DNA of 64,000 nt from Planctomycetota bacterium (GTDB lineage Bacteria > Planctomycetota > GCA-002687715 > CAIWVZ01). Shown here in pieces: positions 140 through 18,898 of the stretch (the stretch's first letter is position 1; each line of letters begins with the position of its first letter). Below the pieces are notes generated by a model that did not search any database, was not told the DNA's origin, and was given only the letters and a program-made list of their open reading frames with translations. The position numbers and the translations under genes are program-made. The stretch spans positions 282,061 through 346,060 of the forward strand of contig JBGANV010000002.1 of NCBI GenBank assembly GCA_044222185.1. The letters run 5' to 3'.

Positions 140-1390
140 GCTCGGAACGCCACGCTCGGCGTGGCCGGTTGGCGAGACCGCCGGGCTCTCAATCGCGGCG
201 AGGTGGGCCGGACGACGCGCCCGCTCTGGCACCGCACGCGGCGGGTTCCCGGCAGGGCGGGAGCCCTGCCGTCCAGCCGCGTGAAACGCGGCGCTCCGGA
301 ACGCCACGCTCGGCGTGGCCAGTTGGCGAGACCGCCGGGCTCGCCGGGGAATCGCCCGCGAGGTCTCAATCGCGGCGAGGTGGGCCGGACGACGCGCCCG
401 CTCTGGCATCGCACGCGGCGGGTTCCCGGCAGGGCCGGAGCCCTGCCGTCCAGCCGCGTGAAACGCGGCGCTCCGGAGCGCCACGCTCGGCGTGGCCGGT
501 TGGCGAGACCTCCGGGCTCGCCGGGGAATCGCCCGCGAGGTCTCGATCGCGGCGAGGTGTGCCGGACGACGCGCCCGCTCTGGCATCGCACGCGGCGAGT
601 TCCCGGCAGGGCGGGAGCCCTGCCGTCCAGCCGCGTGAAACGCGGCGCTCCGGAACGCCACGCTCCGCGTGGCCGGTTGGCGAGACCGCCGGGCTCGCCG
701 GGGAATCACCCACGAGGTCTCAATCGCGGCGAGGTTGCCGCGCGACGCGCCCGCTCTGGCATCGCACTCGGCGGGTTCCCGGCAGGGCGGGAGCCCTGCC
801 ATCCAGCCGCGTGAAACGCGGCGCTCCGGAACGCCACGCTCGGCGTGGCCGGTTGGCGAGACCTCCGGGCTCGCCGGGGAATCGCCCGCGAGGTCTCAAT
901 CGCGGCGAGGTTGCCGCGCGACGCGCCCGCTCTGGCATCGCACGCGGCGAGTTCCCGGCAGGGCGGGAGCCCTGCCGTCCAGCCGCGTGAAACGCGGCGC
1001 TCCGGAACGCCACGCTCCGCGTGGCCGGTTGGCGAGACCTCCGGGCTGCCGGGGAATCGCCCGCGAGGTCTCAATCGCGGCTGCCGCGCGACGCGCCCGC
1101 TCTGGCATCGCACGCGGCGGTTCCCGGCAGGGCGGGACGAGCCGCGTGGTCTCGGAACGCCACGCTCCGCGTGGTTGGCGAGACCGCCGGGCTCGCCGGG
1201 GATCGCCCGCGAGGTCTCGATCGCGGCGAGGTGGGCCGGACGACGCGCCCGCGCTGGCATCGCACGCGGCGGGTTCCCGGCAGGGCTGGAGCCCTGCCGT
1301 CCAGCCGCGTGAAACGCGGCGCTCCGGAACGCCACGCTCCGCGTGGCCGGTCGGCGAGACCGCCGGGCTCGCCGAGATTGACGGCCGGCG
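140..1390. repeat. Tandem array of about 7 copies of a ~177-bp hairpin-rich unit in an intergenic position
   Basis: Units such as 298-475, 476-653, 654-830 and 831-1007 align almost base for base with scattered SNPs. Each unit carries several short inverted repeats (ggcagggcgggagccctgcc, cgcgtgaaacgcg, gccacgctcggcgtggc, ggcgagaccgccgggctcgcc). The first unit carries a 23-bp deletion and the unit at about 1081-1200 is degenerate. ORFs occur in all six frames and give Arg-rich nonsense. Confidence 0.85.
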
Positions 1391-1491: not shown

Positions 1492-4299
1492 ATGAGACTT
1501 CCCGTCGCCGCGAGTTCGTTGCTCATCCTGATGCCCGCCATCCTCGCCGCGCAGGACTCGCGCTCATCGATTCCGCAAGCGTCGCGCGCTCCCACGGACT
1601 TGGCACGCGCGTTCGACCGCTACACCAACCACGTCCGCACCCGGTGGGATGACAGTCTCTTCTTCGTCGAGTCCGACGGCATTCCCGACCACCAGATGAT
1701 GGTGGGCATCACGGCGTGGCAGCAGCAGGTCCCATTGCCCCAGGTCTACACGGGTCAGAACGCGTGGCAGTTCCCCCTTCGACCGGCGGTCGCCGCGAAC
1801 CCGACCTCGGCGCGCACGCACTTCTTCCGCGGAGCCATCGCCATCGCCGTGAACGGGGTACCGATCTTCAACCCCATCAAGAACGACGGGACGACGGACA
1901 CGTTTCTCGCTGGCGAGCTCGACCTCTTCGGCGGCCACTCCGGTCGCGCAGACGACTACCACTACCACCTGGCGCCCGCGTTCCTGAACGCGGAGGACCC
2001 GGCCAAGCCCGTGGCCTACGCGCTCGACGGCTACCCCATCTTCGGGTTCAAGGAGCCGGACGGCTCGCCCACTCGCGCACTCGATCCCTTCAATGGCCAC
2101 GATGACCCGAAGCTCGGGTACCACTATCACGCGACGAAATCGTACCCCTACCTGAACGGCGGCTTCCACGGCGAGGTCACCGAGCGCGAGGGCCAGGTCG
2201 ATCCGCAGCCCCATGCGCATCCGATCCGCCCGGCGACGACTCCGCTGCGTGGCGCTCGCATCACGGACTTCAGGACCCTGGCCAGTGGCAAGTCCTTCGA
2301 GCTCACCTACGAGCAGGCCGGCAAGACGGGATCCGTGCACTACACGATCGTCGGCGACGGGACACACCGGTTCACCTTCACGAACACGGACGGCACGACA
2401 CACGAGGAAACCTACGCCGCCGGTCCCGTGCGCGCAGCCACGCCCGCGCCCGCGTCCCGCCCCACCGACCGCCCCAAGCCGCCACGCGGCGGACCGGACC
2501 CTGCCGATCCGAATCGCAAGCCGTGGATCGTCGACCACGTGGCAGAGATGGACCAGAACCACGACGGAGTCCTCACACGGGCCGAGATGACGACCGAGAT
2601 CCGAACGACGTTCACCGGCTACGACCGCGACGCGGACGGCAAGGTCACGGCCGCCGAGCGCGACACCCGCGACGGCGTCCGATCGGCCATGGGCGGGTTC
2701 GTGCGTGCGCACTGGGCCGAAGTCGACGCAGACCACGACGGCTCGGTCACCGCGGACGAACTCGAGCGGAGTGGCCTGTCCATGTTCGACAAGGCGGATC
2801 GGGATGGGAACGCATCCCTCTCCGCCGCTGAGCTCACTCAGCAGGCCCCGGCGCCGCCACAGGACGCGGGCCCCGCCAGCCGTCCCGCGCGCGGCGGCGG
2901 TCAGCGGCGCGGTGAGGGCCGAGGCGCCGAATCACGCCGGACGACGCGCGCGCGCCCACCGGATGGATTCCGCCTCGACGTTCCGAACCGTCCCTTCGAT
3001 CTGATCCTGACGCGCCCGACGAAGACTTCGATCACCGCCAGTCTCTACACCGCCGAGGACCTCGAAGGGTTCATCGAGTTCGGGCCCGAAGGAATTCGCG
3101 AGCGCAAGAAGTCACCCGTCCGGACGTTCTCCGCGGGCAAGCCCGCAGAGATCCTCATGGACGGCCTGAACGCCGACACGGCCTGCACGTATCGCTTCTT
3201 CCATCGCGCCGCCGGCACCAACGCCACGGACTTCGAGGGCAGCGAACCCAAGACGTTCCACACGCAGCGAGCGCGCGGCCAGTCCTTCGAATTCACCGTC
3301 CAGGCGGATTCGCACCTGGATCCCGGCACCGATCTCGCCGTGTACACCCGCACGCTCCAAAACGTCGTGATGGATCATCCGGACTTTCACGTCGACCTCG
3401 GCGACACGTTCATGACGGACAAACGCCGCGGCAACTTCCGTACGGCCCTGCTCCAATACCAGGCGCAGCGGTGGTACTTCGGGATCGTCGGTGTGGCTTC
3501 GCCGGTCTTCCTCACGGTCGGCAACCACGACGGCGAGATCGGCTGGCGCGATCAGGGCGATGCCAACGACATGCCTCACTGGTCGAATGCGCAGCGCAAG
3601 CTGTACTTCCCCGGGCCCGAACCCGGTGGGATCTACACCGGCAACACCACGCCGGATGCCGTGAACGGCCTGCTCCAGAACTACTACGCGTTCGAATGGG
3701 GCGATGCGCTCTTCGTCGTGCTCGACCCGTTCTGGGCGACGCGCGATCACCGAGGCAAGGCCGATGACCGGTGGTCGTGGACACTCGGCGAAGCGCAGTA
3801 TCGCTGGCTCACGAAAACCGTCACCGAGAGCCGAGCGAAGTTCAAATTCGTGTTCATCCACCACCTGGTCGGCGGGGCCGACGCCGAAGCCCGCGGCGGT
3901 TCGGAGGCGTCCGTGTTCGGCGAATGGGGCGGACGTGACGCTGACGGCACGCTCGCGTTCCCACAGCGCCGGCGTGGATGGGACGCGCCGATTCACGACC
4001 TGCTGCGCCGCGCCGGCGTGCAGGTCGTGTTCCACGGGCACGACCACTTCTTCGCGGAGCAGGATCGGGACGGCATCGTCTATCAACTCGTGCCGCAGCC
4101 CGGACACCTGGGCAACGATGCCGAGAAGATGGCCGCCGAATATGGCTATGCGTCAGGCACGATCCTCCCCCCGCCCGGGTACATGCGCGTGCGCGTCGCG
4201 CCCGAGGCGTCGGTGGTCGAGTTCGTACGCTCATCGGTGCGTGATGCCCGGTCGAACGGCCGCGTGGTTCATTCCTACACCCTGACGGCGCCGAAGTGA
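1492..4299 (+). CDS. Secreted multidomain protein: YHYH domain, four EF-hand-like DxDxDG loops, and a purple-acid-phosphatase-like metallophosphoesterase
   Basis: N-terminal signal peptide MRLPVAASSLLILMPAILAAQ. YHYH signatures GGHSGRADDYHYHLAP and GYHYHATKSYPYLNGGFHG. EF-hand-like loops DQNHDGVLTRAE, DRDADGKVTAAE, DADHDGSVTADE and DRDGNASLSAAE. The C-terminus carries calcineurin-like motifs GDTFMTD, GNHD and GHDHFF. A G/R-rich low-complexity linker lies at about aa 450-490. Confidence 0.7.
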   Translation: MRLPVAASSLLILMPAILAAQDSRSSIPQASRAPTDLARAFDRYTNHVRTRWDDSLFFVESDGIPDHQMMVGITAWQQQVPLPQVYTGQNAWQFPLRPAVAANPTSARTHFFRGAIAIAVNGVPIFNPIKNDGTTDTFLAGELDLFGGHSGRADDYHYHLAPAFLNAEDPAKPVAYALDGYPIFGFKEPDGSPTRALDPFNGHDDPKLGYHYHATKSYPYLNGGFHGEVTEREGQVDPQPHAHPIRPATTPLRGARITDFRTLASGKSFELTYEQAGKTGSVHYTIVGDGTHRFTFTNTDGTTHEETYAAGPVRAATPAPASRPTDRPKPPRGGPDPADPNRKPWIVDHVAEMDQNHDGVLTRAEMTTEIRTTFTGYDRDADGKVTAAERDTRDGVRSAMGGFVRAHWAEVDADHDGSVTADELERSGLSMFDKADRDGNASLSAAELTQQAPAPPQDAGPASRPARGGGQRRGEGRGAESRRTTRARPPDGFRLDVPNRPFDLILTRPTKTSITASLYTAEDLEGFIEFGPEGIRERKKSPVRTFSAGKPAEILMDGLNADTACTYRFFHRAAGTNATDFEGSEPKTFHTQRARGQSFEFTVQADSHLDPGTDLAVYTRTLQNVVMDHPDFHVDLGDTFMTDKRRGNFRTALLQYQAQRWYFGIVGVASPVFLTVGNHDGEIGWRDQGDANDMPHWSNAQRKLYFPGPEPGGIYTGNTTPDAVNGLLQNYYAFEWGDALFVVLDPFWATRDHRGKADDRWSWTLGEAQYRWLTKTVTESRAKFKFVFIHHLVGGADAEARGGSEASVFGEWGGRDADGTLAFPQRRRGWDAPIHDLLRRAGVQVVFHGHDHFFAEQDRDGIVYQLVPQPGHLGNDAEKMAAEYGYASGTILPPPGYMRVRVAPEASVVEFVRSSVRDARSNGRVVHSYTLTAPK

Positions 4300-4348: not shown

Positions 4349-5794
4349 ATGATCCTTCTTCGGTGGAGCCTCGCGGCGCTCGCAGCGGCGTTCACGCTTC
4401 TGCGCACCGTTCCGCCCGAGGACACGATCAACCAGATCCTGGGCCGTCCCACGGATCGATCCATCACGCTGAGCGTCCTGTCGTCCGCCGAGATCGAGGC
4501 CTACGTCGAGTTCGGCAAGACGCGGCAGACCTGGGATGGCAAGACCGCCACTACGATCGTGAAGGCCAACGCTCCCACTGAGATCGAGTTGAAGGGGCTT
4601 CAACCGAACACCCGCTACGTGTACCGCCTGATGTCGCGACATCCGGGCGAGCCCGGATATCGCGCCGGGACGGAAGGCACGTTCCACACGCAGCGGGCGC
4701 CGGGCAGCACCTACACGTTCGCCCTGCAGGGCGATTCCCACCCGGAACGTTCGGGAAAGATGTACGGCGCCGACCTCTACCGCGTGACGATGCAGAACGT
4801 GGCGAAGGACCCACCCGACTTCTACATCACCCTCGGCGATGATTTCAGCATCGAGCGTCTCATCAGCCGCAAGACGATCGATCAAACCGGCGTAGATCGC
4901 GTCTACGCGCATCAGCGGCCGTTTCTCTCCATGGTCGGTTCGTCGTCGTCGCTCTTCCTCGTGAATGGCAATCACGAACAGGCGGCCCGCTATCTCCTGG
5001 ATGGCACGCCGAACAATCCGGCGGTGATGGCCGGCCGGGCGCGCACCAGGTATTTCCCGCTCCCCGCGCCCGATGGGTTCTACACGGGCGACGAGGAGAT
5101 GGTCGACCACATCGGCCTCCTGCGTGATTACTACGCGTGGAGTTGGGGCGATGCGCTGTTCGTGGTGATCGATCCTTACTGGCACTCGTCCGTCGCCGTC
5201 GACAACGAGGCCGGAGCCGAGCATCAGGACAAGGACGCGAAGTCGAAAGGGCGGCGCGACCAATGGGACATCACGCTGGGTGATGCTCAATACAAATGGC
5301 TGACGAAGACGCTGACGGAGAGCCGCGCGCGTTTCAAATTCGTGTTCTCACATCACGTGCTCGGCACGGGCCGCGGTGGCGTGGAATGCGCGACGGGCTT
5401 CGAGTGGGGCGGTCTCGATCGGCGTGGAGTCTCCGCGTTCGCGCAGAAGCGGCCCGGATGGGAACTTCCCATCCACCAGCTCATGGTGAAGACCGGCGTG
5501 ACGATCTTCTTCCAGGGGCACGATCACATCTATGCGCGTCAGGAGTTGGATGGCGTCGTGTATCAGTCGACGCCCAATCCGGCCGACTCCACGTATACGG
5601 CGTTCAATCGGCAGGCCTATCGCTCCGGTGACGTACTGCCCAACTCCGGGCACCTGCGAGTCACCGTGGCGCCCGAATCCGTGCGCGTGGATTACGTTCG
5701 CTCGTTCCTGCCGAAGGACGAGACGGAGAAGGTGCGAAACGGCGAGGTGGCTCACAGCTACACCGTGAAGGCGCGGTTTCCTGTTGGGAAATGA
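4349..5794 (+). CDS. Secreted purple-acid-phosphatase-like metallophosphoesterase, a paralog of the C-terminal domain of the upstream gene
   Basis: Signal peptide MILLRWSLAALAAAFTLL. Motifs GDSHPE, GDDFSIE, GNHE and GHDHIYAR. It lies 50 bp downstream of the previous gene on the same strand. Its C-terminal 300 aa are similar to 1492..4299 (for example FKFVFIHHLVGG versus FKFVFSHHVLGTG). Confidence 0.7.
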   Translation: MILLRWSLAALAAAFTLLRTVPPEDTINQILGRPTDRSITLSVLSSAEIEAYVEFGKTRQTWDGKTATTIVKANAPTEIELKGLQPNTRYVYRLMSRHPGEPGYRAGTEGTFHTQRAPGSTYTFALQGDSHPERSGKMYGADLYRVTMQNVAKDPPDFYITLGDDFSIERLISRKTIDQTGVDRVYAHQRPFLSMVGSSSSLFLVNGNHEQAARYLLDGTPNNPAVMAGRARTRYFPLPAPDGFYTGDEEMVDHIGLLRDYYAWSWGDALFVVIDPYWHSSVAVDNEAGAEHQDKDAKSKGRRDQWDITLGDAQYKWLTKTLTESRARFKFVFSHHVLGTGRGGVECATGFEWGGLDRRGVSAFAQKRPGWELPIHQLMVKTGVTIFFQGHDHIYARQELDGVVYQSTPNPADSTYTAFNRQAYRSGDVLPNSGHLRVTVAPESVRVDYVRSFLPKDETEKVRNGEVAHSYTVKARFPVGK

Positions 5795-5859
5795 CTGCTG
5801 GACCGGATCCGCTCTGGGCGCGCGGCGGCGATGTCAGACGCGATCATTGCTCGGTGCGG

Positions 5860-6266
5860 GTTCCCGGCAGGGCTGGAGCCCTGCCATCCAGCCGCGTGAA
5901 ACGCGGCGTTCCGGAACGCCACGCTCCGCGTGGCCGGTTGGCGAGACCTCCGGGCTCGCCGGGGAATCACCCGCGAGGTCTCAATCGCGGCAAGGTGGGC
6001 CGGACGACGCGCCCGCTCTGGCATCGCACGCGGCGGGTTCCCGGCAGGGCTGGAGCCCTGCCGTCCAGCCGCGTGAAACGCGGCGCTCCGGAACGCCACG
6101 ATCCGCGTGGCCGGTTGGCGAGACCTCCGGGCTCGCCGGGGAATCACCCACGAGGTCTCAATCGCGGCGAGGTGGGCCGGACGACGCGCCCGCGCTGGCA
6201 TCGCACGCGGCGGGTTCCCGGCAGGGCCGGAGCCCTGCCGTCCAGCCGCGTGAAACGCGGCGCTCC
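5860..6266. repeat. About 2.4 further copies of the same ~177-bp hairpin-rich unit, between convergent genes
   Basis: Nearly identical to the units at 140-1390 (ggcagggctggagccctgcc...cgcgtgaaacgcggcg...ggcgagacctccgggctcgcc). Confidence 0.85.
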
Positions 6267-7375
6267 TATTTCTGCGGGCGCGTCGCGGGGGGTACGCGCG
6301 GCGGCGCGGTGCGGGACAACGCTTGGAGGAATGCAACGAGAGAGTCGACGTCGTCGTCCGTGAGATCGACCGGGCGGAGCAGCGGATCGAGTGCCGGATT
6401 CGCCCCGCCGCCGCGGGCATAGAACGTGACGACGTCGCGCAGCGTCGCGAGGCTGCCGTCGTGCATGTACGGCGGCGACAGGGCGACACCGCGAAGCGAC
6501 GGCGTCTTGAACCGGCCCAGGTCGTCGGCCGACCGGGTGATCGCGGCGCGGCCGGGCTCGGGCCGGCCGTCGATGACGCCCACGCCAGTGTTGTGGAAGC
6601 TCTCGTCGGTGAAGTTCGCGCCCGAGTGGCAACGCCAGCAACCGCCCTTGCTCTCGTAGATCCACAGCCCGGTCCGTTCAGGGCGCGTGAGCGCTTCCAC
6701 CTCACCGATGCGGAAGCGATCGATCGGGCTGTCGCCGATCAGCAACGTCCTAACGTGCGTCGCGAGCGCGTGAGCCACGCCAGCCCCATCGGGCGGCCCC
6801 CCGAACGCGGTCTCGAACGCCGCCACGTACTCCGGGTTCTCGCCGATTCTCCGGACGACCCCCGCCAGGCTGAATCCCATCTCGTCCTCGGCCGCGATCG
6901 GAGCGACGACCTGCTCCTCCAGCGTGCTCGCCCGGCCATCCCAGAAGTAACGGACACCGAATGCGCGATTGAATAGCGACGGCGCATTGCGATGCGTCGT
7001 GCGCCCGTTCACGCCGCGCGAATGCGGGCGCGAATCCGCGAACCCATGATCGGGCAAGTGACACGATCGACACGCGATGGAGCCGTCCACCGACAGGGCC
7101 GGGTCGTCGAAAAGCCTCCGGCCCAATTCGGCCTTCTCGAGCGACCAGGGATTGGTCGGTGGGAACTCCAATGCCGCCGCAAGTCCGAAAGGCGGGGCGG
7201 GTTCGCCCTTGGCTGTCGCGGGGCGCGAATCCTGCGCGGGCATTCCGCCGCAGATCGACATCACCGTCACATAGACGAGGATCCGCGAATTCGCGGAGCG
7301 CGGCGCTGACCGACTGACCGCACGGTGCTCGTCCGTCGATGGCGTGGACGCCCGCGCATGGGTGGATACAGGCAT
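6266..7375 (-). CDS. Di-haem cytochrome c peroxidase (CCP/MauG family)
   Basis: Two CxxCH haem motifs (CRSCHLP and CWRCHSG). Family-typical stretches FDDPALSVDGSIACRSCH, FWDGRASTLEEQ and SFHNTGVG. The start is uncertain: a long Arg-rich N-region precedes the hydrophobic ILVYVTVMSIC segment, and alternative starts are the in-frame ATGs at 7261 and 7243 (MSICGGMPAQ). Confidence 0.8.
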   Translation of the reverse strand: MPVSTHARASTPSTDEHRAVSRSAPRSANSRILVYVTVMSICGGMPAQDSRPATAKGEPAPPFGLAAALEFPPTNPWSLEKAELGRRLFDDPALSVDGSIACRSCHLPDHGFADSRPHSRGVNGRTTHRNAPSLFNRAFGVRYFWDGRASTLEEQVVAPIAAEDEMGFSLAGVVRRIGENPEYVAAFETAFGGPPDGAGVAHALATHVRTLLIGDSPIDRFRIGEVEALTRPERTGLWIYESKGGCWRCHSGANFTDESFHNTGVGVIDGRPEPGRAAITRSADDLGRFKTPSLRGVALSPPYMHDGSLATLRDVVTFYARGGGANPALDPLLRPVDLTDDDVDSLVAFLQALSRTAPPRVPPATRPQK

Positions 7376-7986: not shown

Positions 7987-10698
7987 ATGGTTTCGACGAC
8001 TCCAGCCCTCCGAATCGCACTCGCCAGCCTCGCGCTCACGACGCTCGCGTCCGCCCAGAAACTGCCGTTCGAGAAGTACAAGCTCGACAACGGAATGACG
8101 GTGATCCTGCACGTGGATCACTCGCTGCCGAACGTCACGATCAACACCTGGTATCGCGTCGGCGCCCGCAACGAACCGCCGGGACGGTCGGGCTTCGCCC
8201 ACCTGTTCGAACACCTCATGTTCATGGGCACGCGGCGCGTGCCTGGCAACGCCTTCGACGTCGTGATGGAGACCGGCGGCGGCTGGAACAACGCGAGCAC
8301 GAATCTCGATCGCACCAACTACTTCTCGTCGGGACCCTCGGACCTCCTGCCGACGCTGCTGTGGCTCGACGCCGATCGCCTCGATGAGATGGGGCGGACG
8401 ATGACCAAGGAGAAGCTCGACAAGCAGGTCGACGTCGTCCGCAACGAGATCAGGGAAAACGTGGAAAACACGCCGTACGGACGGGCCTACGAGGGGTCTT
8501 TCAGCCTCCTGTTTCCCCAGGGCCATCCCTACCACAACGGGGTCTACGGGACGCACGCCGACCTGACCTCGGCCACCGTCCAGGACGTGAAGGACTTCTT
8601 CTCGACGTTCTACGTCCCGTCCAATGCGTCGCTGGTGATCGCCGGCGACTTCGACCCGGCGGAGATCAAGCCGCTGGTGGCGAAGATGTTCGGGACCCTG
8701 CCCGCAGGCGCAGCCCCCACGCCGCGTGCGGTCGCCGACCCCCAAGTCGAGGGCGTCGTCCGCTCGACCATGCTCGACCGGGTGGAAGTCCCACGGCTCG
8801 CCATGTCCTGGATCAGCCCGGGCGGATTCGCGCCGGGAGACGCCGAGCTCATGCTCGCCGGGCAGGTGCTGACCGAGGGCCAGAACAGCCGGCTCTATCA
8901 ACGCCTCGTGCTGCAGGAGCCGCTCGCCGTCTCCGTGTCTGCCGAGCAGGAGAACAGCCGGCTCAATTCCATCTTCCGGCTCTCCGTCGAGGTCAAACCC
9001 GACGCCGACATGGAACGGGTCGAGGCGATCGTCGACGAGGAGATCCGCAAGCTCCAGGAGTCGGGGCCGACCGAAGACGAGCTCCGCCAGCGGCAGGCGA
9101 CAGCGGAGCACGAACTGCTCACGAGCCTTCAGAGCGTGGCGGCCCGGGCCGACAAGCTCAACGAATACGAGTTCTACCTGGGCACTCCGGACGGGCTCGA
9201 AAAGGACCTTTCGCGTTTCCGCGGCGCGACCGCGCAGGGCGTCGCCCAATGGACGAAGCGCGTCCTCGACCTGTCGCATCGCCTGATCATCCGCGTGCTG
9301 CCCGATGCCGTGGAGCCGGGGACGTCAGCCCGCGAGTCGCGCCCCGCCGCGGCCAGGCCTCGCCCGTTCGCTCCGCCGGCGCCGGAGACGTTCAAGCTCC
9401 AGTCGGGGATCACGGTCAACTTCTGGCCCATGCCCGACCTGCCCCTGGTGACGGCGCGGATGACGTTCCTGCCCGGTGGGCCGCTGGATTTGCCCAAGGA
9501 AGCGGGAGCCGCCGTCCTCATGGCAACCATGCTCACCGAGGGTGCCGGCGCGCGCGACTCGGGGGCGTTCTCCGCCGCGCTCCAGCAGCTCGGTGCGACG
9601 ATGTCGGCGCATGCCGATCGCGAGGCCGTGACGGTGGGCCTGTCGTCTCTCGCCCGCAACTTCGACAAGGCAGCCGAGCTTTGGGCCGATGCGGTCCTGC
9701 GACCCCGATTCGCCGAGGACACGTGGAAGGTCGTTCATGCGAACCACGTCCAGGAGCTCGAGCAGGATCGTGAGGAACCCACGACCGTCGCGCTGAAGGT
9801 CGCCACGCGCGCGCTGTACGGCGACGAGAGCCGATGGGCCTGGCCAACGGCCGGGCTCGTCGCGACCGTCGGGCCGCTGACACTGGATCGCATCAAAGCG
9901 CGCCACGCCGAGCTGGTTCACCCGTCACTCGCCACGATCTTCATCTCAGGAAGCCTCACGACGGATGAGCTGAAGCCGATCCTCGAGAAGGCGTTCGGGG
10001 GCTGGACGTCGGCCGCAACGGCCGCCAGTCGTGTGACGGACGATCCCAAGGTGCCGCCGACGCAGCGCATGCTTTTCGTCGACCGGCCGAATGCCGTTCA
10101 AACGGTCATCCGGTTTGCGTCGCGCGCCGTTCCGTTCGCCGACCCGGGGCGAGTTCCCATGCGGCTCTTGAACGTGGCTCTGGGCGGATCGTTCACGAGT
10201 CGCCTGAACCAGAACCTGCGCGAGCGAAACGGGTACACCTACGGCGCTCGTTCGTCCTTCGAATTCAATCGCACGCTCGGTGCGTTCACCGCTGGCGCCG
10301 CCGTGCGCGCCGAGGCCACGGGCGCCGCGCTGAAGGAGTTCCTGGCCGAGTTCGCGAAGATCCGCGCCGGCGATCTGTCGGATGACGAGGTCACGAAGGC
10401 TCGCCGCATGATGAAGACGGAGTTCGTCCAAGGGCTGGATTCCATGGAGGGCCGCCTCGGGTTCGCGTCCGAGCTGCTGAGAGTCGAGGCACCGTGGGCG
10501 ACGATCTCGAAGGACGTGGAGACGTCCGAGTCCGTGACCGCCGCGCAGGTCAACAAGCTCGCGAAGGATGCGCTCGCCCTCGAGCGCGGCGTGCTCGTGC
10601 TCGTCGGCGACAAGAAGCTGATCCTCGAACAGACGAAGGACCTCGGGCTCCCGGCGCCCGTCGAAGTGGATGCCGATGGTGCGCCCGTGAAGCCGTGA
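7987..10698 (+). CDS. Secreted tandem-duplicated M16 (pitrilysin/insulinase) zinc peptidase
   Basis: Signal peptide MVSTTPALRIALASLALTTLASAQ after an AAGGAA ribosome-binding site. Inverted zincin motif HLFEHLMFMGT (HxxEH). The protein is about 900 aa, equal to two M16 units, with the second, inactive-type half starting near aa 460. Confidence 0.8.
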   Translation: MVSTTPALRIALASLALTTLASAQKLPFEKYKLDNGMTVILHVDHSLPNVTINTWYRVGARNEPPGRSGFAHLFEHLMFMGTRRVPGNAFDVVMETGGGWNNASTNLDRTNYFSSGPSDLLPTLLWLDADRLDEMGRTMTKEKLDKQVDVVRNEIRENVENTPYGRAYEGSFSLLFPQGHPYHNGVYGTHADLTSATVQDVKDFFSTFYVPSNASLVIAGDFDPAEIKPLVAKMFGTLPAGAAPTPRAVADPQVEGVVRSTMLDRVEVPRLAMSWISPGGFAPGDAELMLAGQVLTEGQNSRLYQRLVLQEPLAVSVSAEQENSRLNSIFRLSVEVKPDADMERVEAIVDEEIRKLQESGPTEDELRQRQATAEHELLTSLQSVAARADKLNEYEFYLGTPDGLEKDLSRFRGATAQGVAQWTKRVLDLSHRLIIRVLPDAVEPGTSARESRPAAARPRPFAPPAPETFKLQSGITVNFWPMPDLPLVTARMTFLPGGPLDLPKEAGAAVLMATMLTEGAGARDSGAFSAALQQLGATMSAHADREAVTVGLSSLARNFDKAAELWADAVLRPRFAEDTWKVVHANHVQELEQDREEPTTVALKVATRALYGDESRWAWPTAGLVATVGPLTLDRIKARHAELVHPSLATIFISGSLTTDELKPILEKAFGGWTSAATAASRVTDDPKVPPTQRMLFVDRPNAVQTVIRFASRAVPFADPGRVPMRLLNVALGGSFTSRLNQNLRERNGYTYGARSSFEFNRTLGAFTAGAAVRAEATGAALKEFLAEFAKIRAGDLSDDEVTKARRMMKTEFVQGLDSMEGRLGFASELLRVEAPWATISKDVETSESVTAAQVNKLAKDALALERGVLVLVGDKKLILEQTKDLGLPAPVEVDADGAPVKP

Positions 10699-10892
10699 GT
10701 CCGGCGCACACCGCCTCGTGCGGCCACCGGAGCCTCTCGCCTTCAAGGGCCGGTCGGCCGCCGCGCGACGAGAGGCTCGAGCCGACCTGGAGCGAATTCG
10801 AGAGGGGTCGTGATCGGTCGTTGCCGATCCGGCTCGCGGAGTTCGAAGCGGCGTCGGTGTTCGCGCCGATCCCCACCGACTCTCCGCATCAA

Positions 10893-11330
10893 TAGCGGGA
10901 ACGCCAGGCTTCGCCTGGCCGGACGGCAGGGCTCGGCCCTGCCACGGAACGTGGATGTACTACGTTCGCTGCGGGGACACGGCAGCAGGCACGCGTCATC
11001 CGCCGTGCCGCTCGGCTGACCGCGGGGCGACCCTTCCAACGTTCGCGGCGGGGCAGAGCCCCGCCGGTCCGGCCGCGCGGAGCGCGGCGCTCCTGGGCCG
11101 ACCTTGCGCCGTTGGAACGCCAGGCTTCGCCTGGCCGGACGGCAGGGCTCGGCCCTGCCACGGAACGTGGACGTGCTGCGTTCGCTGCGGGGACACGGCA
11201 GCAGGCACGCGTCATCGGCCGTGCCGCTCGGCTGACCGCGGGGCGACCCTCTCGACGTTCGCGGCGGGGCAGAGCCCCGCCGGTCCGGCCGCGCGCAGCG
11301 CGGCGCTCCGGTCTCCGACGGCCCGGCAAC
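10893..11330. repeat. Two tandem copies of a ~220-bp hairpin-rich intergenic repeat that shares modules with the 177-bp family
   Basis: Copy 1 spans 10893-11112 and copy 2 spans 11113-11330, more than 90% identical. Hairpin modules are ccaggcttcgcctgg, ggcagggctcggccctgcc, ggggcagagccccgcc and ggagcgcggcgctcc. The gaacgcc and ggcaggg...ccctgcc modules are shared with the arrays at 140 and 5860. Confidence 0.8.
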
Positions 11331-11487
11331 GATTTTCTGTCAGGAACGCGGGCGCGGTGGGAAGGGGGCCCGGAGGCCGATCCCGCGCGCCGCCTCCGGC
11401 CTCGCGATTCCCGAAGCCAACCACCGCGGGGGAGACACCACCGTGTTCGACCGAAACTCAAACCTGCAACGGCGCGCCGGAAGGGCC

Positions 11488-14400
11488 ATGAGCACCTGGG
11501 CTGGGATGCTGCTGCTCACGGCCGCGATTCAGGCCCAGTTCTCGAACTGCTCGTCCAATTGTCACGTGGTCGGCGGCAACGTCGTCAACGGCGGGGCCGG
11601 ACCGTTCCTCGCAGGCCACGTCTACCTGGTGAATTCGTCCCTCGTGGTGCCGGGTGGCCAAACCCTCACCATCCAGGGCGGCGCCGTCGTGAAGTTCGCC
11701 GGCGTCTTGGACTTCACCATCGGCGGAACGCTGAACGTGACGGGGACCGCTGGGCAACCGGCGATCCTCACGTCCATCGCCGACGACATCGTCGCGGACC
11801 ACAACGGCAACGGGAACGCAACGTTGCCGGCCCCAGGCGATTGGATCGGACTGACCTTCAACGGCGGATCCATAGCGAGCCAGGTCACGGGCCTGAGCGT
11901 TCGCAACGCCGGGTGGAATGGGAACCCGGCCATTCGCTTCAACGCGGCCAGTCCGGCGCTGTCGCAGTGTTCCGTCGTCGCATGTCAGGCGGCGGCCATG
12001 AACCTGAGCAGCAACTCCTCACCCACCGTGACGGGCTGCACGTTCACCGGCGGATCGCGCGTCGCCGTCAACGTGCCGTGGGCCGCAGTCGCCGGCTTCT
12101 CGTCGAACACGGCGAGCGGCCAGTCGGTCTACGACGCCATCGAGGTCGACACGACGCTCGCCAGCGGCACGGTGTCGATCCAGAAGTCGAACACGATCAA
12201 CCAGAGCGGGGCGATCGTGTGCAGTGGCAACGCCACCGTGGCCGGCAGTGCCACGCTCACGCTCGGCCCTGGCGTCGTCACCAAGATCGCCGTCGTCGCG
12301 TCATTCAACGTGTTCGGCACGCTGATCACCAACGGAACCCTGGCTCAGCCGACGGTGATCACGTCGATCGATGACGACACGTTCGGCGGCGACACGAACC
12401 GCAACGCGGGGGCGAGCGCGCCTGCGGCCGGTCAGTTCGTCCAGCTCTACCTGGGTTCGGCGGCGTCGTCGAGCCAGCTCAATTCGCTGCTGGTCCGCTG
12501 CGCCGGCTGGAATGGAAACGCTGCGGTGAAATTCGACCAGTGCAACGCCACGGCGAGCGGCCTTCGCACGCAGCTCTCGGGCGGCCCCTGTGTCGACCTG
12601 AGCAACAACTCGACTCCCACGATGACGGGGTGCGCGTTCGACGGGGGCACCGTCGCCTCGACGAACATCCCCTTCGGAGCGCTCGCGGGTTTCACCGGAT
12701 GCACCGCGTCCGGAAACGCGTCGTACGACGCGCCCATCGTGACGTCGCCAACCCTCGCGACCGGTCAGTCGGCCGTCGTCTCCTCGACGAACGGGTTCAA
12801 CGGAAACGGCGTCATCGTGATTCCCACGACGCTCAGCGTCCAAGCGGGCGCCACGCTCACCTTGAACGCAGGCGTGCGCTTCAAGGTGACCGGCGTCAGC
12901 GGGATCTACGTCGCGGGTCGGCTGCTGACCAACGGCGCCACCAACAACCCGGTGGTCTTCACCTCGATCGCCGACGACACCTACGGCGGTGACACGAACA
13001 AGAATGGGGCGAATTCGGTCGCACAGCCCGGCCAGTGGGTCGAGCTCAGCATCGGCAACAGCGCCGATCTGAGCGTGATGCAGGGCCTCCTCGTCCGGTG
13101 CGCCGGCTGGAACGGCAACCCGTCCGTGCGCTTCGACCAGTCGACGGCCTCCGCGACCGGGCTGCGCACGCAGTTGTCCGGTGGGCCATGCGTCGACTTG
13201 AGCAACAACTCGCGCCCGACGCTCACCAACTGTGCGTTCGACGGCGGCACCGTCGCGGCCACCAACGTCCGCTTCGCAGATCTCTCTGCGTTCACCGGCT
13301 GCTCGGCGACGGGCAACGCGTCCTACGATGCGCCGCTGATCACCACGCCGTCGACGGCTGCGGGCGAATCTTCGACCGTCCTCGCGTCCTACGGGTTCAA
13401 CAACACCGGCGTCTTCGTGATCCCGACGACGCTGAGCGTCGTGGCGAACAGTTCGCTGACGCTCGGTCCGGGCGTCCGGTTCAAGGTGACGGGCGTCACG
13501 GGGATCTACGTCACCGGAACACTCGTCACGAACGGCACGGACGGCGACCCCGTCACCCTGACCTCCATCACCGACGACACGATCGGCGGTGACACGAACA
13601 AGGACGGCGCGGCGTCCACGGGGCAACCGGGACAATGGGTCGAGCTGAACTTCGGCGCCGGATCGAGCGCGTCGATCGTGACCGGGCTTTCCATCCGATG
13701 CTCCGGCTGGAACGGCAATCCGTCGATCCGCTGCAGCCAGGCCAACCCGACGTTCACGAAGGTGCGGACGGCCCTGTCGGCCGGCCCGTGCATCGATCTC
13801 AGCAACAACTCGGTGCCTCTCGCCCGTTTCTGCCGCTTCGACGGTGGAACCCTCGCCGCCACGAACGTGCCGTTCACTTCGTTCGCCGGGTTCAAGCAAT
13901 GCACGGCGACGGGCAACTCGCAGGCGAATGCGCCGCGCGTCACCAATCCGACCGTCGCCAGCGGCTCGACTGCGGTCGTGCGTGCCATCAACACGTTCAA
14001 CGGCAGCGGGGCGATTCACGTGCCAGGCACGATGACCGTCGCCGCCGGTGGCACGTTGGACCTGGGACCCGGCGTCGTGATCAAGATCGAGAACGTCGCC
14101 TCGGTCAACCTCTACGGCACGGCGCTCTGGCGCGGCACGGGACACGACCCGGTCGTCTTCACCTCCGTGAACGACGACACGTGGGGCGGCGACTCCAACG
14201 TCAACGGGCCCTCCGTCGGAACGAACGGCCAGTGGGTCCAGCTCTACGTCGACCCGTCGGCGACGGGCGAGCTGAAGCACGTCCGCTTGGCGTGTGGCGG
14301 ATGGAATGGCAACCCGGCCGTGGTCGCGCGCTCGGCGAACGTGACGTTCGATGCGGACCGCGTGGAGCGGTCGGGAGGCAACGGCTTCCAGATCGAGTCG

Positions 14401-15168
14401 TGCGCCGGATCCACCCTGGACAACATGGTCGCGTGGAACTGCGTCGGCACCGGCATCCGCGTCGACGGCGCGAAGACGCTCCGTCACGCGACGGCCGCCA
14501 GCTGCGGAACCGGCATCAGCAGCAACGGATCGGGCACCGGTCCGGGTCTCGCCATCAACTCGATCGCCGCCAACAACTCGACGAACTTCGCCGGCTTCGC
14601 CGCCAACGCGGTGACGTACAGCAACGGATTCGGGAGCGGAACGGGCAACGTGTCGGGTTCTCCGGCGTTCGTCAACGTCGCCGCGGGCGACCTGAACCTC
14701 ACGTCGGCATCGCCCTGCGTCGACACGGCGGACGTCGCCACGGCCTTCGCACTCGTCTTCGACCACGACGAAGGCTCGCGGCTCTCCGACGGTCGCCTGA
14801 TCGGCTCGCCGCTGCCGGACATGGGCGCGTACGAGCTCGCCGCCTATCACCTCGACGTTTCGGGCCATGCCTGGAGCTTCGAGACGATGACGGCCACGGT
14901 CGTCGGACCTCCGGGTTCGGCGGCGCTCGCCATCGGCCCCGGCGGGACGGCGGTTCCGTACGTGCCGTACGGCTTCCTCGTGCTCGGACCGCTGAACACG
15001 CTCACGGTGATCGGGATCATCCCGACGAACACGCCGTTCGTGTACACGCTGCCCGATGAATCGGCGAACGTCGGCACGACGTTCAGCTTCCAGGCCCTCG
15101 GCGTCCCGGCGACGAGCGCGACGCTCGGCGCCTTCACGAACGTCTACCGCGGCGTTCTGGACGGCTGA
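11488..15168 (+). CDS. Large secreted protein built from 5 tandem ~200-aa units, beta-helix-like, with possible Ca-binding DDTxGGDTNxNG loops
   Basis: Signal peptide MSTWAGMLLLTAAIQAQ. The block ...TSIxDDTxGGDTNxNG...PGQWVxL...LxVRCAGWNGNPxVRF... recurs at nt 11767, 12361, 12961, 13561 and 14164 (period 594-603 bp). The composition is Gly/Thr/Asn/Val-rich, typical of parallel beta-helix proteins. Confidence 0.6.
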   Translation: MSTWAGMLLLTAAIQAQFSNCSSNCHVVGGNVVNGGAGPFLAGHVYLVNSSLVVPGGQTLTIQGGAVVKFAGVLDFTIGGTLNVTGTAGQPAILTSIADDIVADHNGNGNATLPAPGDWIGLTFNGGSIASQVTGLSVRNAGWNGNPAIRFNAASPALSQCSVVACQAAAMNLSSNSSPTVTGCTFTGGSRVAVNVPWAAVAGFSSNTASGQSVYDAIEVDTTLASGTVSIQKSNTINQSGAIVCSGNATVAGSATLTLGPGVVTKIAVVASFNVFGTLITNGTLAQPTVITSIDDDTFGGDTNRNAGASAPAAGQFVQLYLGSAASSSQLNSLLVRCAGWNGNAAVKFDQCNATASGLRTQLSGGPCVDLSNNSTPTMTGCAFDGGTVASTNIPFGALAGFTGCTASGNASYDAPIVTSPTLATGQSAVVSSTNGFNGNGVIVIPTTLSVQAGATLTLNAGVRFKVTGVSGIYVAGRLLTNGATNNPVVFTSIADDTYGGDTNKNGANSVAQPGQWVELSIGNSADLSVMQGLLVRCAGWNGNPSVRFDQSTASATGLRTQLSGGPCVDLSNNSRPTLTNCAFDGGTVAATNVRFADLSAFTGCSATGNASYDAPLITTPSTAAGESSTVLASYGFNNTGVFVIPTTLSVVANSSLTLGPGVRFKVTGVTGIYVTGTLVTNGTDGDPVTLTSITDDTIGGDTNKDGAASTGQPGQWVELNFGAGSSASIVTGLSIRCSGWNGNPSIRCSQANPTFTKVRTALSAGPCIDLSNNSVPLARFCRFDGGTLAATNVPFTSFAGFKQCTATGNSQANAPRVTNPTVASGSTAVVRAINTFNGSGAIHVPGTMTVAAGGTLDLGPGVVIKIENVASVNLYGTALWRGTGHDPVVFTSVNDDTWGGDSNVNGPSVGTNGQWVQLYVDPSATGELKHVRLACGGWNGNPAVVARSANVTFDADRVERSGGNGFQIESCAGSTLDNMVAWNCVGTGIRVDGAKTLRHATAASCGTGISSNGSGTGPGLAINSIAANNSTNFAGFAANAVTYSNGFGSGTGNVSGSPAFVNVAAGDLNLTSASPCVDTADVATAFALVFDHDEGSRLSDGRLIGSPLPDMGAYELAAYHLDVSGHAWSFETMTATVVGPPGSAALAIGPGGTAVPYVPYGFLVLGPLNTLTVIGIIPTNTPFVYTLPDESANVGTTFSFQALGVPATSATLGAFTNVYRGVLDG

Positions 15169-15286
15169 TCCCACCAGGCCACGTCCCTTCGCGACTCGCT
15201 CGACGACTCCTGCTCGTGGACGCCTGGAACGGCGCGCCGACGTGCGGGTTTCGCCGAGCGGGTTCGCGACGGGTACTCTGTGTCGG

Positions 15287-17788
15287 ATGATCGAAATGGA
15301 CCGCACACACTCGCCCGATACGCCGAGCTCGTGGTTCGAGGACGACGCGACCTTCGCGGCCGTCGTCCGCGAGGCTCTGCGCGACGACTCGCCGACGCCC
15401 GGCGTACCAGGATGCAGCGAGCTGCGAGAGATCGGGCGCGGCGGTCAGGGCGTCGTCTACGCCGCGGTCCAGACGGCCACGCGGCGCCGAGTCGCCATCA
15501 AGGTGCTGACGGACGCGCCCGGCCGAACGCGCAGCGCGCGCATGCGGTTCGAGCGCGAACTCGAGCTCGTGGCGTCGCTGCACGATCCGCGGCTCGTCCA
15601 GATCTTCGACGGCGGCACGACGGACGACGGGCGTCCCTTCGTCGTCATGGAACTCGTCGACGGCGTCCGCATCGACGAGAGCCCACTCGTCCTGGCCGCC
15701 CGGGCGAGCGGCTTCGCGCGCCCCGCGGCGGATCCCGTGGTGTCGCTGTTCGCCGACGTGTGCGAGGGCCTCGATCACGCGCACCGGCGTGGCGTGATCC
15801 ATCGAGACCTGAAGCCATCGAACATCTTCGTCGACCCGACGGGGACTCCCCGCGTCCTCGACTTCGGACTCGCCAAGGCCGCCGGCCTGGCGGGCGAAGG
15901 ATTCGCCACGACGACCGGCGCGCGGTTCGTCGGCTCGCTTCCGTGGACGAGCCCCGAACAGGCCGGGGGCCGGCTCGACGCCGTGGACGTCCGCTCGGAC
16001 GTCTATGCACTCGGCGCCACGCTCTACAACCTCGTGACGGGTCGCCCGCCGTGCCCGACGGACCTGGATCTGCGGCGCGCGCTCGACGCCGTCATCCACG
16101 ATTCGCCGACTGCGCCCGCGCGACTCGACCCGCGATGCGATCGCGATCTCGAGGCCGTGATCCTGCGCGCGCTCGAGAAGGACCCGGACAAGCGCTACCC
16201 CACGGCCGGCGAGATGGGTCGCGACTTGCGTCGGATCCTCGCGGGCGAGCCCCTCGATGCGCGGCGGGACAACGCGTGGCGGACTCTCGTCAAGCTCGCG
16301 AAGCGCCGCCGCCGCCTCGCCATCGGCGCCTCGATCCTCGCCGTCGCCGCCGTCGCGGTGTTCATCACCACGTGGTCGCTGTGGCGACGTGCCGTCTCCG
16401 AGTCGAGGCGCGCCGAAGATTCGCTCGCGTTCTTCCTCGACGCCATCGGATCCGTCGACCCGGCGCGCGATGGCGCCGACGCCAAGCTCGCGGATGCACT
16501 CGATCGGGTCTCGGCCGATCTCGATCGGCGGCTCGGCGACGATGAACGGGATGCGAAACTCAAGTTCCGGATCAGACTGCGGGATCTCTACATTCGCCTC
16601 GCGCGCTACGACCGAGCGCTCGCCGAGGCGGAGGCCGTGGTGGCGCTTCAGCGCGGCGTCGAGCACGCGCCGGGGTCGGCCGAGTCCCGCTCGTACTGGA
16701 ACGGCGAGGTCCAACGCGGCCTCATCCTCCACAACCTTCGACGGGATCGGGATGCGCTGCCCGTCTACAAGGCGAGCTACGAGGGACTGCGCGCTGGGTT
16801 CGGCGACGCCGACGGCGACGCGCTCGGGGCGCTCGCGGGCATGGGCCAGGTGCTGAAGGGCCTGGGGCAGTTCGACGACGCAGAGCGGGCGCTCCGCGAA
16901 GTGATGAGGTTCACCGATGGCCAGTTGCAGACCGAGCGGCAGTCCCTGTCGCGGGCGCTGGCCGCGGACAACCTGTCGGCGATCGCCGGCATGTTCGGGC
17001 GCTTCGACGAGGCCGAGCAGCATCAGCGCGAGACGCTCCGCCTGTTCACTCTCGTGCAAGGCGAGATGGGGCCGGATGCGCTCGGTGCCGAGTCGAACCT
17101 CGGGAGCCTTCTCGCAAACATGCAGCGCTACGCGGACGCCGAGCGCGTGCTCGCGTCCACCGTCACGAAGATGAAGCAGCGGTTCGGTGCGCGCCACCCG
17201 ATGACGCTCACGACGATCCACAGTCTGGGCGTCGCACTCTCGGGCGCCGGTCGGCTCCCGGAGGCGGACACCGTGCTGCGCGAGGCGTACGAGGGGCGCG
17301 TCGCCGCTCTCGGCGCCGATGCGAGCGACACGTTGTCGACGCTCAACGAGCTGGCTCTGAGCGCCGAACGGGGCGGCAAGCTGGACGAAGCCGAGCGATT
17401 GCTTCAGTTGCGGCTCGAGAGTGGACGCAGGGTGATGCGGACGCAGCCGCTGGACGGGTTGAGCGCGCTGTCCGATCTCGGGTGGTTCCTCTGCCTCCGC
17501 GGCCGCCCTGGCGACGCGCGTCCGCTCTTCGAAGAGCTGTGCACCACGGCCGCGGGGATCCTTCCTCCGGGCCATTGGCTGAACGCCGACTACTCGGCGA
17601 ACTACGCACGCTGCCTCACCGATCTCGAGCAATTCGATCAGGCCGCGGAACGACTGAAGGCGGCGCACGCCGCGCTTTCAGAGAAGCTGGGACCGAACGA
17701 CGGGCGGACGACGCGGATCTCCAAGTTGATCGACCGCAACGCGCGACGTCGCACTGAAGCGGCCACGCGGCCATCCTCGCGTCCCTGA
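15287..17788 (+). CDS. Hanks-type Ser/Thr protein kinase with one TM segment and a C-terminal TPR domain
   Basis: LREIGRGGQGVVYAAV...VAIKVL (Gly loop and catalytic Lys), HRDLKPSNIF and DFGLAK. TM helix LAIGASILAVAAVAVFITTW, followed by about 450 aa of TPR-like helical repeats. The start was taken at ATG 15287 (alternative 15296); the ORF-track extension to 15056 overlaps the upstream gene and is Arg-rich. Confidence 0.75.
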   Translation: MIEMDRTHSPDTPSSWFEDDATFAAVVREALRDDSPTPGVPGCSELREIGRGGQGVVYAAVQTATRRRVAIKVLTDAPGRTRSARMRFERELELVASLHDPRLVQIFDGGTTDDGRPFVVMELVDGVRIDESPLVLAARASGFARPAADPVVSLFADVCEGLDHAHRRGVIHRDLKPSNIFVDPTGTPRVLDFGLAKAAGLAGEGFATTTGARFVGSLPWTSPEQAGGRLDAVDVRSDVYALGATLYNLVTGRPPCPTDLDLRRALDAVIHDSPTAPARLDPRCDRDLEAVILRALEKDPDKRYPTAGEMGRDLRRILAGEPLDARRDNAWRTLVKLAKRRRRLAIGASILAVAAVAVFITTWSLWRRAVSESRRAEDSLAFFLDAIGSVDPARDGADAKLADALDRVSADLDRRLGDDERDAKLKFRIRLRDLYIRLARYDRALAEAEAVVALQRGVEHAPGSAESRSYWNGEVQRGLILHNLRRDRDALPVYKASYEGLRAGFGDADGDALGALAGMGQVLKGLGQFDDAERALREVMRFTDGQLQTERQSLSRALAADNLSAIAGMFGRFDEAEQHQRETLRLFTLVQGEMGPDALGAESNLGSLLANMQRYADAERVLASTVTKMKQRFGARHPMTLTTIHSLGVALSGAGRLPEADTVLREAYEGRVAALGADASDTLSTLNELALSAERGGKLDEAERLLQLRLESGRRVMRTQPLDGLSALSDLGWFLCLRGRPGDARPLFEELCTTAAGILPPGHWLNADYSANYARCLTDLEQFDQAAERLKAAHAALSEKLGPNDGRTTRISKLIDRNARRRTEAATRPSSRP

Positions 17789-18515: not shown

Positions 18516-18619
18516 CGTCGAAGGAGCGCCAGTCTTCCGCCGTCCCGGCGGAGACTGGCCGGATCTCCGCGCGTCCCGCGCGGGCCAACCGGCGTCGATC
18601 GCGGTGCGGTGCGAGATCA
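18516..18619. repeat. Copy 1 of a ~104-bp direct repeat containing a strong GC hairpin
   Basis: The copy at 18782-18885 is identical apart from about 3 substitutions. The hairpin is gcgccagtcttccgcc-gtcc-cggcggagactggc, followed by cgcgcgtcccgcgcggg. It begins 28 bp after the sigma gene stop. Confidence 0.8.
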
Positions 18620-18781
18620 CTGGTGGCTGAATGATCCTCGAACGTCCCGCGGCGAATCGACGGTCGCCGGACCGGACGCCGCCGCTGCCGCGGCGGGTCG
18701 ACCAGCGCTCCGTACGCGATCGTTCGAGAGGCGGGCGACTCCCGGGTTGCGGGTCTCGGGTTGCCGCGCAATCGCGTCGGC

Positions 18782-18885
18782 ATTCGAAGGAGCGCCAGTC
18801 TTCCGCCGTCCCGGCGGAGACTGGCCGGATCTCCGCGCGTCTCGCGCGGGCCAACCGGCATCGATCGCGGTGCGGTGCGAGATCA
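18782..18885. repeat. Copy 2 of the ~104-bp hairpin repeat
   Basis: See copy 1. The two copies flank a unique 162-bp segment (18620-18781). Confidence 0.8.
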
Positions 18886-18898
18886 CCCGCCTCGCCCC

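Follow-up and report, generated by a model that had tools for sequence, protein, structure and literature searches.

We analysed a 64-kb stretch (the window) of a Phycisphaerae (Planctomycetota) chromosome, from a genome with 68% GC, in which GC-rich multi-hairpin units stand in tandem arrays between genes. All copy counts of the repeats given here refer to the window. We read the units as copies of a lineage-specific, non-coding element resembling repetitive extragenic palindromic (REP) sequences, REP doublets forming hairpins (REPINs) and bacterial interspersed mosaic elements (BIMEs), which would have spread between sites and then been amplified locally; we put the probability of this reading at roughly 0.55. 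It is supported by the architecture of the units as deduced from their sequence, namely inverted pairs of tagged GC hairpins with different stems, mosaic modules, intergenic location, tandem repetition together with flanking sequence, and a consistent orientation. An initial annotation of this DNA had also likened the repeats to REP/BIME elements, among other candidates, and the tagged hairpins in inverted pairs and the intergenic tandem mosaics bear this out.

Tandem Repeats Finder (TRF) detected a 177-bp period repeated 5.4 times at 187–1137 (95% matches, score 1671; overlapping rows reach 1443) and 2.3 times at 5856–6266 (97% matches), a 216-bp period repeated 1.9 times at 10898–11309 (95% matches), and a 31-bp sub-repeat of 2.5 copies at 41195–41271. 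The first array (array A, 144–1374, + strand; TRF, blastn, alignment and matches of covariance model R1) was resolved by blastn of single units against the window and by a regular expression for the GGARC tag with which units begin. It consists of seven units of the 177-bp type, starting at 144, 298, 475, 652, 828, 1004 and 1154 and measuring 154, 177, 177, 176, 176, 150 and 172 bp, and a partial eighth of 49 bp (1326–1374); the initial annotation had given about seven copies at 140–1390, a few bases off. Units 1 (154 bp) and 6 (150 bp) carry internal deletions. The first base of the array is exactly the start of the GGAACGCC head, and past its last unit lies a degenerate edge (1375–1443, + strand; seen in the sequence and in a 322-bp TRF row reaching 1443) in which the centre has diverged, a CATTGCACGCGGCGG remnant is kept and both 3′ hairpins are gone. 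Array B (5812–6266, + strand; TRF, blastn and alignment), known before as copies at 5860–6266, comprises a degenerate partial unit at about 5812–5912 and full units at 5913–6089 and 6090–6266. Its final bases are GGCGCTCC, an exact end at 6266.

Related units that reuse the same modules had been reported at two further loci, and blastn recovered both. Array C (10898–11309, + strand; TRF, blastn and covariance model R1) contains two 196-bp units, 10898–11093 and 11114–11309, with a 20-bp linker between them. Array D (41193–41667, + strand; TRF, blastn, covariance model R1 and folds) contains 31-bp sub-repeats followed by units of 189–191 bp at 41253–41441 and 41473–41663; its period is 220 bp, and the units starting at 41253 and 41473 are 95% identical. 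The outer hairpin of array D is longer and has a bulged T, and the hairpin designated H2 and the 3′ module are common to the 177-bp and 220-bp units. The consensus units U177 and U221 have in common GGCCGGTTGGCGAGACC-N-CCGGGCTCGCC and the 3′ 50 nt (96% identity). A fifth locus, beyond the four counted initially, is a distant relative at 18518–18886 (+ strand; blastn, regular expression and covariance model R1) with a 266-bp period in 1.4 copies. Each copy starts with GGAGCGCC, after which come a 13–14-bp hairpin with a bulged T in the 5′ arm, GGCCGG and another hairpin; the 3′ end of this locus lacks a clear inverted module. Covariance model R1, which was not trained on this locus, recovered modules at 18523 and 18789 (E = 0.014–0.019). 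The five loci together make up 2.9 kb, or 4.5% of the window. As a separate observation, the 31-bp sub-repeat of array D (41193–41271 and 41442–41472) duplicates the tag GGARCGCC together with the outer hairpin's 5′ arm. Two copies of the sub-repeat precede the first 220-bp unit and one precedes the second, and an alternative TCCCCG...CGGGGA hairpin is possible in it.

The repeats are real and far above chance. The 26-nt 3′-end pattern TCCRGCCGCG-N5-CGCGGCGYTCC occurs 13 times in the window, always on the + strand, compared with 0.03 occurrences expected. Independent support comes from short reads: a Logan contig (SRR28480390) matches the window at 100% identity for 2512 bp and ends inside array B, which confirms the unique-to-repeat junction of that array; the copy numbers come solely from the original assembly. 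In agreement with the initial annotation, the arrays are not an obvious assembly artefact. The whole 177-bp period is repeated at 93–98% identity, and no unique sequence lies between the copies. A CRISPR array, dismissed already in the initial annotation, is ruled out by the lack of unique spacers. An integron attC array (cluster of attC sites lacking an integrase, CALIN) is likewise ruled out, the core sites RYYYAAC and GTTRRRY being absent from all four arrays.

When all unit ends were listed in one orientation, a single module of about 47 nt (module M) was found at both ends of every unit. Module M consists, in order, of an unpaired GGARC tag, a hairpin with a 7-bp stem and a 3-nt loop, YGG plus two bases, and a second GC stem of 8–9 bp. 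The outer stem follows the pattern GCCNNNN-TYN-NNNNGGC, and the second stem is either GGCRGGGC-TCNN-GCCCYGCC or GGCGAGaCC-NCC-GGgCTCGCC. A unit is thus built from M on the + strand, a centre of 80–120 bp and M on the − strand. Its ends are imperfect terminal inverted repeats of about 47 bp that contain hairpins, begin with GGARCGCC and end with GGCGYTCC, and a perfect 8-bp pair, GGAGCGCC/GGCGCTCC, starts them. The tag is GGAAC or GGAGC in 31 of the 31 modules listed, GGAGC accounting for about one-third. An example of the left-end module, M(+), at 298–347 (+ strand; fold and covariation) has a GGAAC tag, GCCACGC-TCG-GCGTGGC, CAG-TT and GGCGAGaCC-GCC-GGgCTCGCC, with a DNA fold of −17.4 kcal/mol (z = −2.9); a right-end module, M(−), at 425–474 (− strand; fold) has a GGAGC tag, GCCGCGT-TTC-ACGCGGC, TGGAC and GGCAGGGC-TCCG-GCCCTGCC, with a DNA fold of −22.5 kcal/mol (z = −4.6). 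Every module was recovered by covariance model R1, with all M(+) on the + strand and all M(−) on the − strand. Units of arrays A, B and D stand head to head with zero spacer (GGCGCTCC|GGAACGCC), and in array C, where the linker intervenes, a complete module M and its inverted copy bound each unit. The GGCAGGGC hairpin is reused in opposite orientation in the 216-bp unit. The modules are short imperfect palindromes of the REP type, conserved as stem-loop structures with 7–9-bp stems, and with their placement on opposite strands at the unit ends and their reuse between subfamilies they form inverted dimers and mosaic clusters as in REP/BIME elements.

The terminal hairpins have been conserved by compensatory change. 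Across the three subfamilies, 99% of the alignment cells in the outer stem were paired, and both sides had changed in three of the seven pairs (A:U/G:C, C:G/G:C and C:G/U:A). The covariation score of this stem was reached by none of 500 shuffles, and controls with slid partners were 17–45% paired. One compensatory pair was found in the inner stem, A:T changing to G:C in the 216-bp unit. When the left and right modules of one unit were compared, they differed exactly at the compensated positions, indicating that the local hairpins have been preserved and not pairing between the unit ends. A 100-nt stretch over a unit junction was predicted to fold as four local hairpins and not as one long hairpin. 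Alternatively, the units, or a whole array, might be transcribed as a functional multi-hairpin RNA, either as an array of non-coding RNA genes or as one long structured RNA; small-RNA genes arrayed in tandem are known from other bacteria. In agreement with this possibility, both strands of a two-unit stretch fold very stably (z about −4.2), covariation keeps the terminal hairpins, and the loci share one orientation, which is co-directional with the upstream gene in all four cases where that gene is known. In contrast, the centre (80–120 bp) shows no covariation: some copies have SNPs that disrupt several of the predicted pairs, none of which is compensated, and it is barely alignable between subfamilies. 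The ends of the units are inverted copies in which opposite strands share one tag and one loop bias; such symmetry would be expected if DNA ends are recognised but serves no obvious purpose in a single transcript. Both strands also fold equally well. Furthermore, Rfam 15 gave no match at the gathering score over the window, and at E ≤ 10 gave only weak sub-gathering ones, mostly to eukaryotic or viral microRNA hairpins (best score 29.7 bits with E 0.15 and a gathering score of 89; best E 0.05), and neither a sigma-70-type promoter nor a canonical terminator was found per unit. The suggestion of a structured RNA made in the initial annotation thus held for the four terminal hairpins, which covary, and failed for the centre, and we consider a functional RNA array quite unlikely. 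Two further candidates were rejected: no tRNA or tmRNA lies in the window, and a sigma-54 promoter at the conserved TGGCAT does not fit by eye in its −24/−12 spacing or its −12 element.

The array boundaries fall exactly on tags at 144 (left end of A), 6266 (right end of B), 10898 and 11309 (both ends of C) and 41663 (right end of D). No target-site duplication was found at any of these five clean boundaries; the flanks are dissimilar and carry no direct repeat. This result bears on whether the units are classical miniature inverted-repeat transposable elements (MITEs), that is, deletion derivatives of an insertion sequence (IS) with a DDE transposase, moved by cut-and-paste through terminal inverted repeats. 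Like the Correia/NEMIS, ERIC and RUP elements, the units are small and non-coding, lie between genes, have inverted repeats at their ends and can form hairpins when transcribed; their size of 177–220 bp is typical of MITEs, and their imperfect inverted repeats, about 47 bp long with a perfect 8-bp pair at the start, also fit. Unlike MITEs, however, they lack target-site duplications and are always in tandem, and wherever units of A, B and D join they stack head to head without a spacer, which is not a usual MITE pattern. The differences between the inverted repeats preserve the local hairpin of each arm, which points to recognition of hairpins and not of duplex ends. In addition, no IS with these ends is present in the window. 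We hold a MITE origin of the units to be quite unlikely.

Variation among the copies suggests that the arrays have been reworked where they stand. The units of arrays A and B are 1–11 substitutions apart, and distances from B to A are no greater than those within A. Variants in these two arrays are distributed as a mosaic, as seen at columns 57/61, at column 105 and in the loop at column 139, and the array edges are degenerate. Mosaic variants and degenerate edges support the view that unequal exchange and gene conversion acted on the arrays after their formation. A rolling-circle origin would account for the tandem arrangement in another way: in a non-autonomous element of the HUH-Y2 type (IS91/ISCR/Helitron-like), failed termination would leave head-to-tail concatemers. 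Tandem copies at five of five loci, the zero-spacer junctions of A, B and D and the lack of target duplications are compatible with such an origin, and the GGAAC tag contains GAAC/GTTC, which we take to be the IS91 target tetranucleotide. However, about a third of the tags are GGAGC instead of GGAAC, array C has its 20-bp linker between units, and elements of this type have two different ends and not inverted repeats. The mosaic variants and degenerate edges fit recombination at least equally well, and no such transposase is encoded in the window. We regard a rolling-circle element as very unlikely.

All five loci are intergenic and have the same polarity, as the initial annotation had stated for the four loci it knew with regard to their intergenic position. 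Open reading frames (ORFs) across the arrays have flat GC contents at the three codon positions (GC1, GC2 and GC3 all about 0.75) compared with about 0.65/0.5/0.85 in the flanking genes, which carry Pfam domains and are ordinary chromosomal genes. A protein-coding tandem repeat was ruled out by these flat values, by unit lengths of 154, 176, 150 and 172 bp that break the reading frame, and by the lack of homologues, a six-frame translated array query finding no match among 5.8 billion proteins. The 177-bp consensus unit is 59 codons long, and four of its six frames are open. Spurious ORFs, the longest of 327 aa, cross the arrays (1–1652, 5758–6705, 10889–12374 and 41324–41763), and GTG-started extensions of real genes reach into them, for example at 41371–45009. 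GC skew is weakly negative throughout the window and gene-strand bias is weakly positive.

In all four cases in which the left neighbour is known, the array begins 18–200 bp past the stop codon of a + strand gene. Array B fills the whole gap between two convergent genes, and its last base overlaps the TAG stop codon (6266–6268) of a di-haem cytochrome c peroxidase gene (6266–7375, − strand). The locus at 18518–18886 sits between a gene for an extracytoplasmic function (ECF)-type sigma factor (17853–18488) and the next + strand gene. One unit of array D had been described as lying directly upstream of the S9 peptidase gene; the ATG of this gene is at 41764, about 100 bp past the array. Positions of this kind would also suit immobile host cis-elements, such as bidirectional terminators, insulators or protein-binding sites, that were spread by segmental duplication and gene conversion, and transcripts from both sides meet the same two strong hairpins. 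Against this, the five loci have unrelated flanks, and segmental duplication therefore does not account for their spread; no T-run follows the hairpins except, weakly, at 6245–6275; an array of 1.2 kb is far beyond what a terminator needs; and most other gene ends in the window carry no such element. We hold an origin as immobile cis-elements to be distinctly improbable. For the REP-like element, by comparison, an effect on neighbouring genes would be a by-product: transcription from either side would meet the same two strong GC hairpins first, and the probable host side-effect would be 3′-end formation, mRNA protection or insulation between neighbouring genes, of the kind proposed for REP/BIME elements; a terminator, stabiliser or insulator role is one that we infer purely from array position and from these hairpins.

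The closest precedent, by analogy, is Pseudomonas fluorescens SBW25, in which ordered tandem REP arrays with a 184-bp period (72 + 112) and 12 REPs per array extend over roughly 1.1 kb, arrays are forward on one side of the chromosome and reverse on the other in a replichore-dependent manner, and tandem REPIN clusters exceed 700 bp (Bertels & Rainey 2011, PMC3116915). In view of these arrays, the initial statement that a 1.2-kb array is unusually long for a prokaryote was overstated. As in SBW25, hairpins are repeated in tandem together with flanking sequence, at a period of 177 bp here and 184 bp there, several extragenic arrays with a consistent orientation are present in one genome, and two types of hairpin alternate. 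Unlike here, the REPs of SBW25 are single short hairpins tagged with GTAG, most REPINs are solitary, and three cognate genes for REP-associated tyrosine transposases (RAYTs) each lie beside a cluster; here the module is a double hairpin, the tag is GGARC and five of five loci are tandem. REP clusters elsewhere consist of dimers reiterated in tandem with flanking DNA, including heterodimers with different stems, and an unpaired GTAG or CGTC tetranucleotide at the stem end defines two REP super-families (Di Nocera et al. 2013, PMC3733652). The units share with the REP/BIME elements of Escherichia coli short GC-rich stem-loops, an unpaired conserved tag at one end, intergenic location, head-to-head heterodimers, mosaics with other motifs and clusters of tandem-reiterated dimers. 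They differ from REPs with GTAG or CGTC tags in their tag, in having two hairpins per module, in units of 177–220 bp with a long centre and in their occurrence in one genome only.

Several of these differences weigh against the REP-like reading and limit how the element can be classified. Its tag GGARC is neither the GTAG nor the CGTC of the two described REP super-families, so the element lacks a defining feature of these. All five loci are tandem and no solitary unit occurs in the window, whereas REPINs are mostly single, and both the units and their centre are longer than in typical REPINs. Inverted modules, as in REPINs, are present, but they lie 80–120 bp apart, differ at compensated positions and are predicted to fold as local hairpins and not as one long hairpin. 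A transposase was not found among 38 ORFs of the window scanned with Pfam, nor was a RAYT (Y1 HUH, PF01797), the partner proposed in the initial annotation, among the same ORFs, and copies have been found in a single genome. A scan of all loci collected for the HUH...Y motif revealed no Y1 transposase, the single match lying inside the M16 peptidase match of one locus (L177). Because of the GGARC tag, the lack of a solitary unit and the greater length, we do not file the element as a member of the described REPs. Our claim is that it behaves as REP-like elements do and forms a new family among them, without being a GTAG REP; it does not look like a new kind of system and, as matters stand, is an ordinary though well-documented bacterial repeat.

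For this REP-like element we propose that transposition in trans brings units to different intergenic sites. An enzyme recognising tagged single-strand hairpins would be required, most likely an HUH-Y1 protein of the RAYT/TnpA-REP or class-3 type encoded elsewhere. Unequal recombination, slippage or gene conversion would then enlarge the arrays where they stand and homogenise their units. Genes for the poorly understood class-3 HUH-Y1 proteins (TnpA-Y1) occur mainly in Planctomycetes and Acidobacteria and are flanked by atypical hairpins, of which a genome can hold about 600 copies (Quentin et al. 2018, PMC6006769). The parallels with the present element are the same phylum, atypical high-copy hairpins and a short conserved foot 5′ of the stem, and in some modules the CGGA ahead of the inner hairpin agrees with the CnGA foot described for these genes; this fit involves three specified bases only and fails in many modules (TGGA, CGGT). 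The link to class-3 HUH-Y1 proteins is thus a lead and not a result. A bolder possibility, which we hold to be unlikely, is that the GGARC double-hairpin module represents a third, undescribed tagged REP lineage of Phycisphaerae or Planctomycetota, moved by a class-3 HUH-Y1 or a rolling-circle HUH enzyme, with the arrays arising as direct products of transposition by insertion of units beside their own head. If so, the tag and the hairpin with its bulged T would give an orphan enzyme class a defined substrate, and a mechanism for the origin of REP arrays would follow.

The search for relatives that the initial annotation had proposed did not extend the family beyond the source genome. A specific 31-base pattern had no match in GTDB species-representative genomes, and two patterns had none in IMG/VR viral contigs; plasmids searched by blastn gave none. 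A generic 26-nt end pattern yielded 102 matches in JGI metagenomes, all of them chance matches and none with the TGAAA loop or the flanking modules. We also applied blastn, a regular expression and covariance model R1 to 1.48 Mb of sequence in 84 loci of Phycisphaerae and of further genomes that carry the M16 peptidase. The family did not turn up there; matches were all sub-threshold (E 0.6–1.9), and the two that were inspected by eye lie in coding-looking sequence. In GTDB, the M16 peptidase has its best relatives in metagenome-assembled genomes (MAGs) of Phycisphaerae/Phycisphaerales, at only about 55% identity. The best homologues of a window protein are at most 70% identical and are not syntenic, indicating that the source lineage is poorly sampled, and they lack such repeats.

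Tandem hairpin arrays are not unique to the source genome, as a parallel is present in a relative. A Phycisphaeraceae MAG contig (L130, CAYPEI010000032.1) carries an unrelated multi-hairpin tandem repeat of 146 bp in 2.2 copies at 12673–12993. The repeat follows directly on the stop codon of the gene for the orthologous M16 peptidase and is cut off by the end of the contig. Its hairpin CACGGGCA-TCC-TGCCCGTG occurs in the repeat and also as a solitary copy upstream of the M16 peptidase gene (9857–9878), and a second hairpin, GGGCAGGCG-TCC-CGCCTGCCC, resembles the inner hairpin GGCAGGGC-TCCN-GCCCTGCC of the window. In a Phycisphaerales MAG (L137), a tandem array at 3328–3630 repeats about every 54 bp and is made up of long G runs and the near-palindrome GGCGAGCCCGGGCTGGCGCC.

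Other features of the window were noted in passing. Upstream of array A, a 12–13-bp GC hairpin, CGGCCCGCaGGAC-c-GTCCcGCGGGCCG, lies at about 38–66, followed by two palindromes with a ATGCGCAT core, ACATGCGCATGT at about 73–84 and ATGCGCAT at about 97–104. The hairpin and palindromes at 38–110 could be a terminator plus operator sites, and if the promoter of the gene at 1492–4299 lay there, array A would be part of a 1.3-kb leader. The neighbours of the arrays encode phosphoesterases, an M16 peptidase, an S9 peptidase, Ser/Thr kinases, the ECF-type sigma factor and a sigma-54 activator. Two large proteins of repeated CarboxypepD_reg-like domains are encoded at 48300–51170 (seven matched stretches) and 60498–63149, and two TPR-containing Ser/Thr kinases at 15056–17788 and 28631–31036. 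Four ORFs, at 33608–35149, 53613–54803, 57654–58928 and 58826–60460, have no Pfam match.

To our knowledge, REP-like elements are well studied in Proteobacteria and barely in Planctomycetota. The arrays provide a clean and well-resolved planctomycete example with an unusual double-hairpin end module, compensatory evolution and tandem arrangement at every locus, and in another Phycisphaeraceae MAG this gene neighbourhood holds a second hairpin family that is unrelated. Short-read assemblies break at such arrays, both the Logan contig and the contig of that MAG ending inside a repeat, and the four open frames of six and the long ORFs across the arrays invite false gene calls. If the partner enzyme were found, the family could help to explain how ordered REP arrays arise and what role the class-3 HUH-Y1 proteins enriched in Planctomycetes play.

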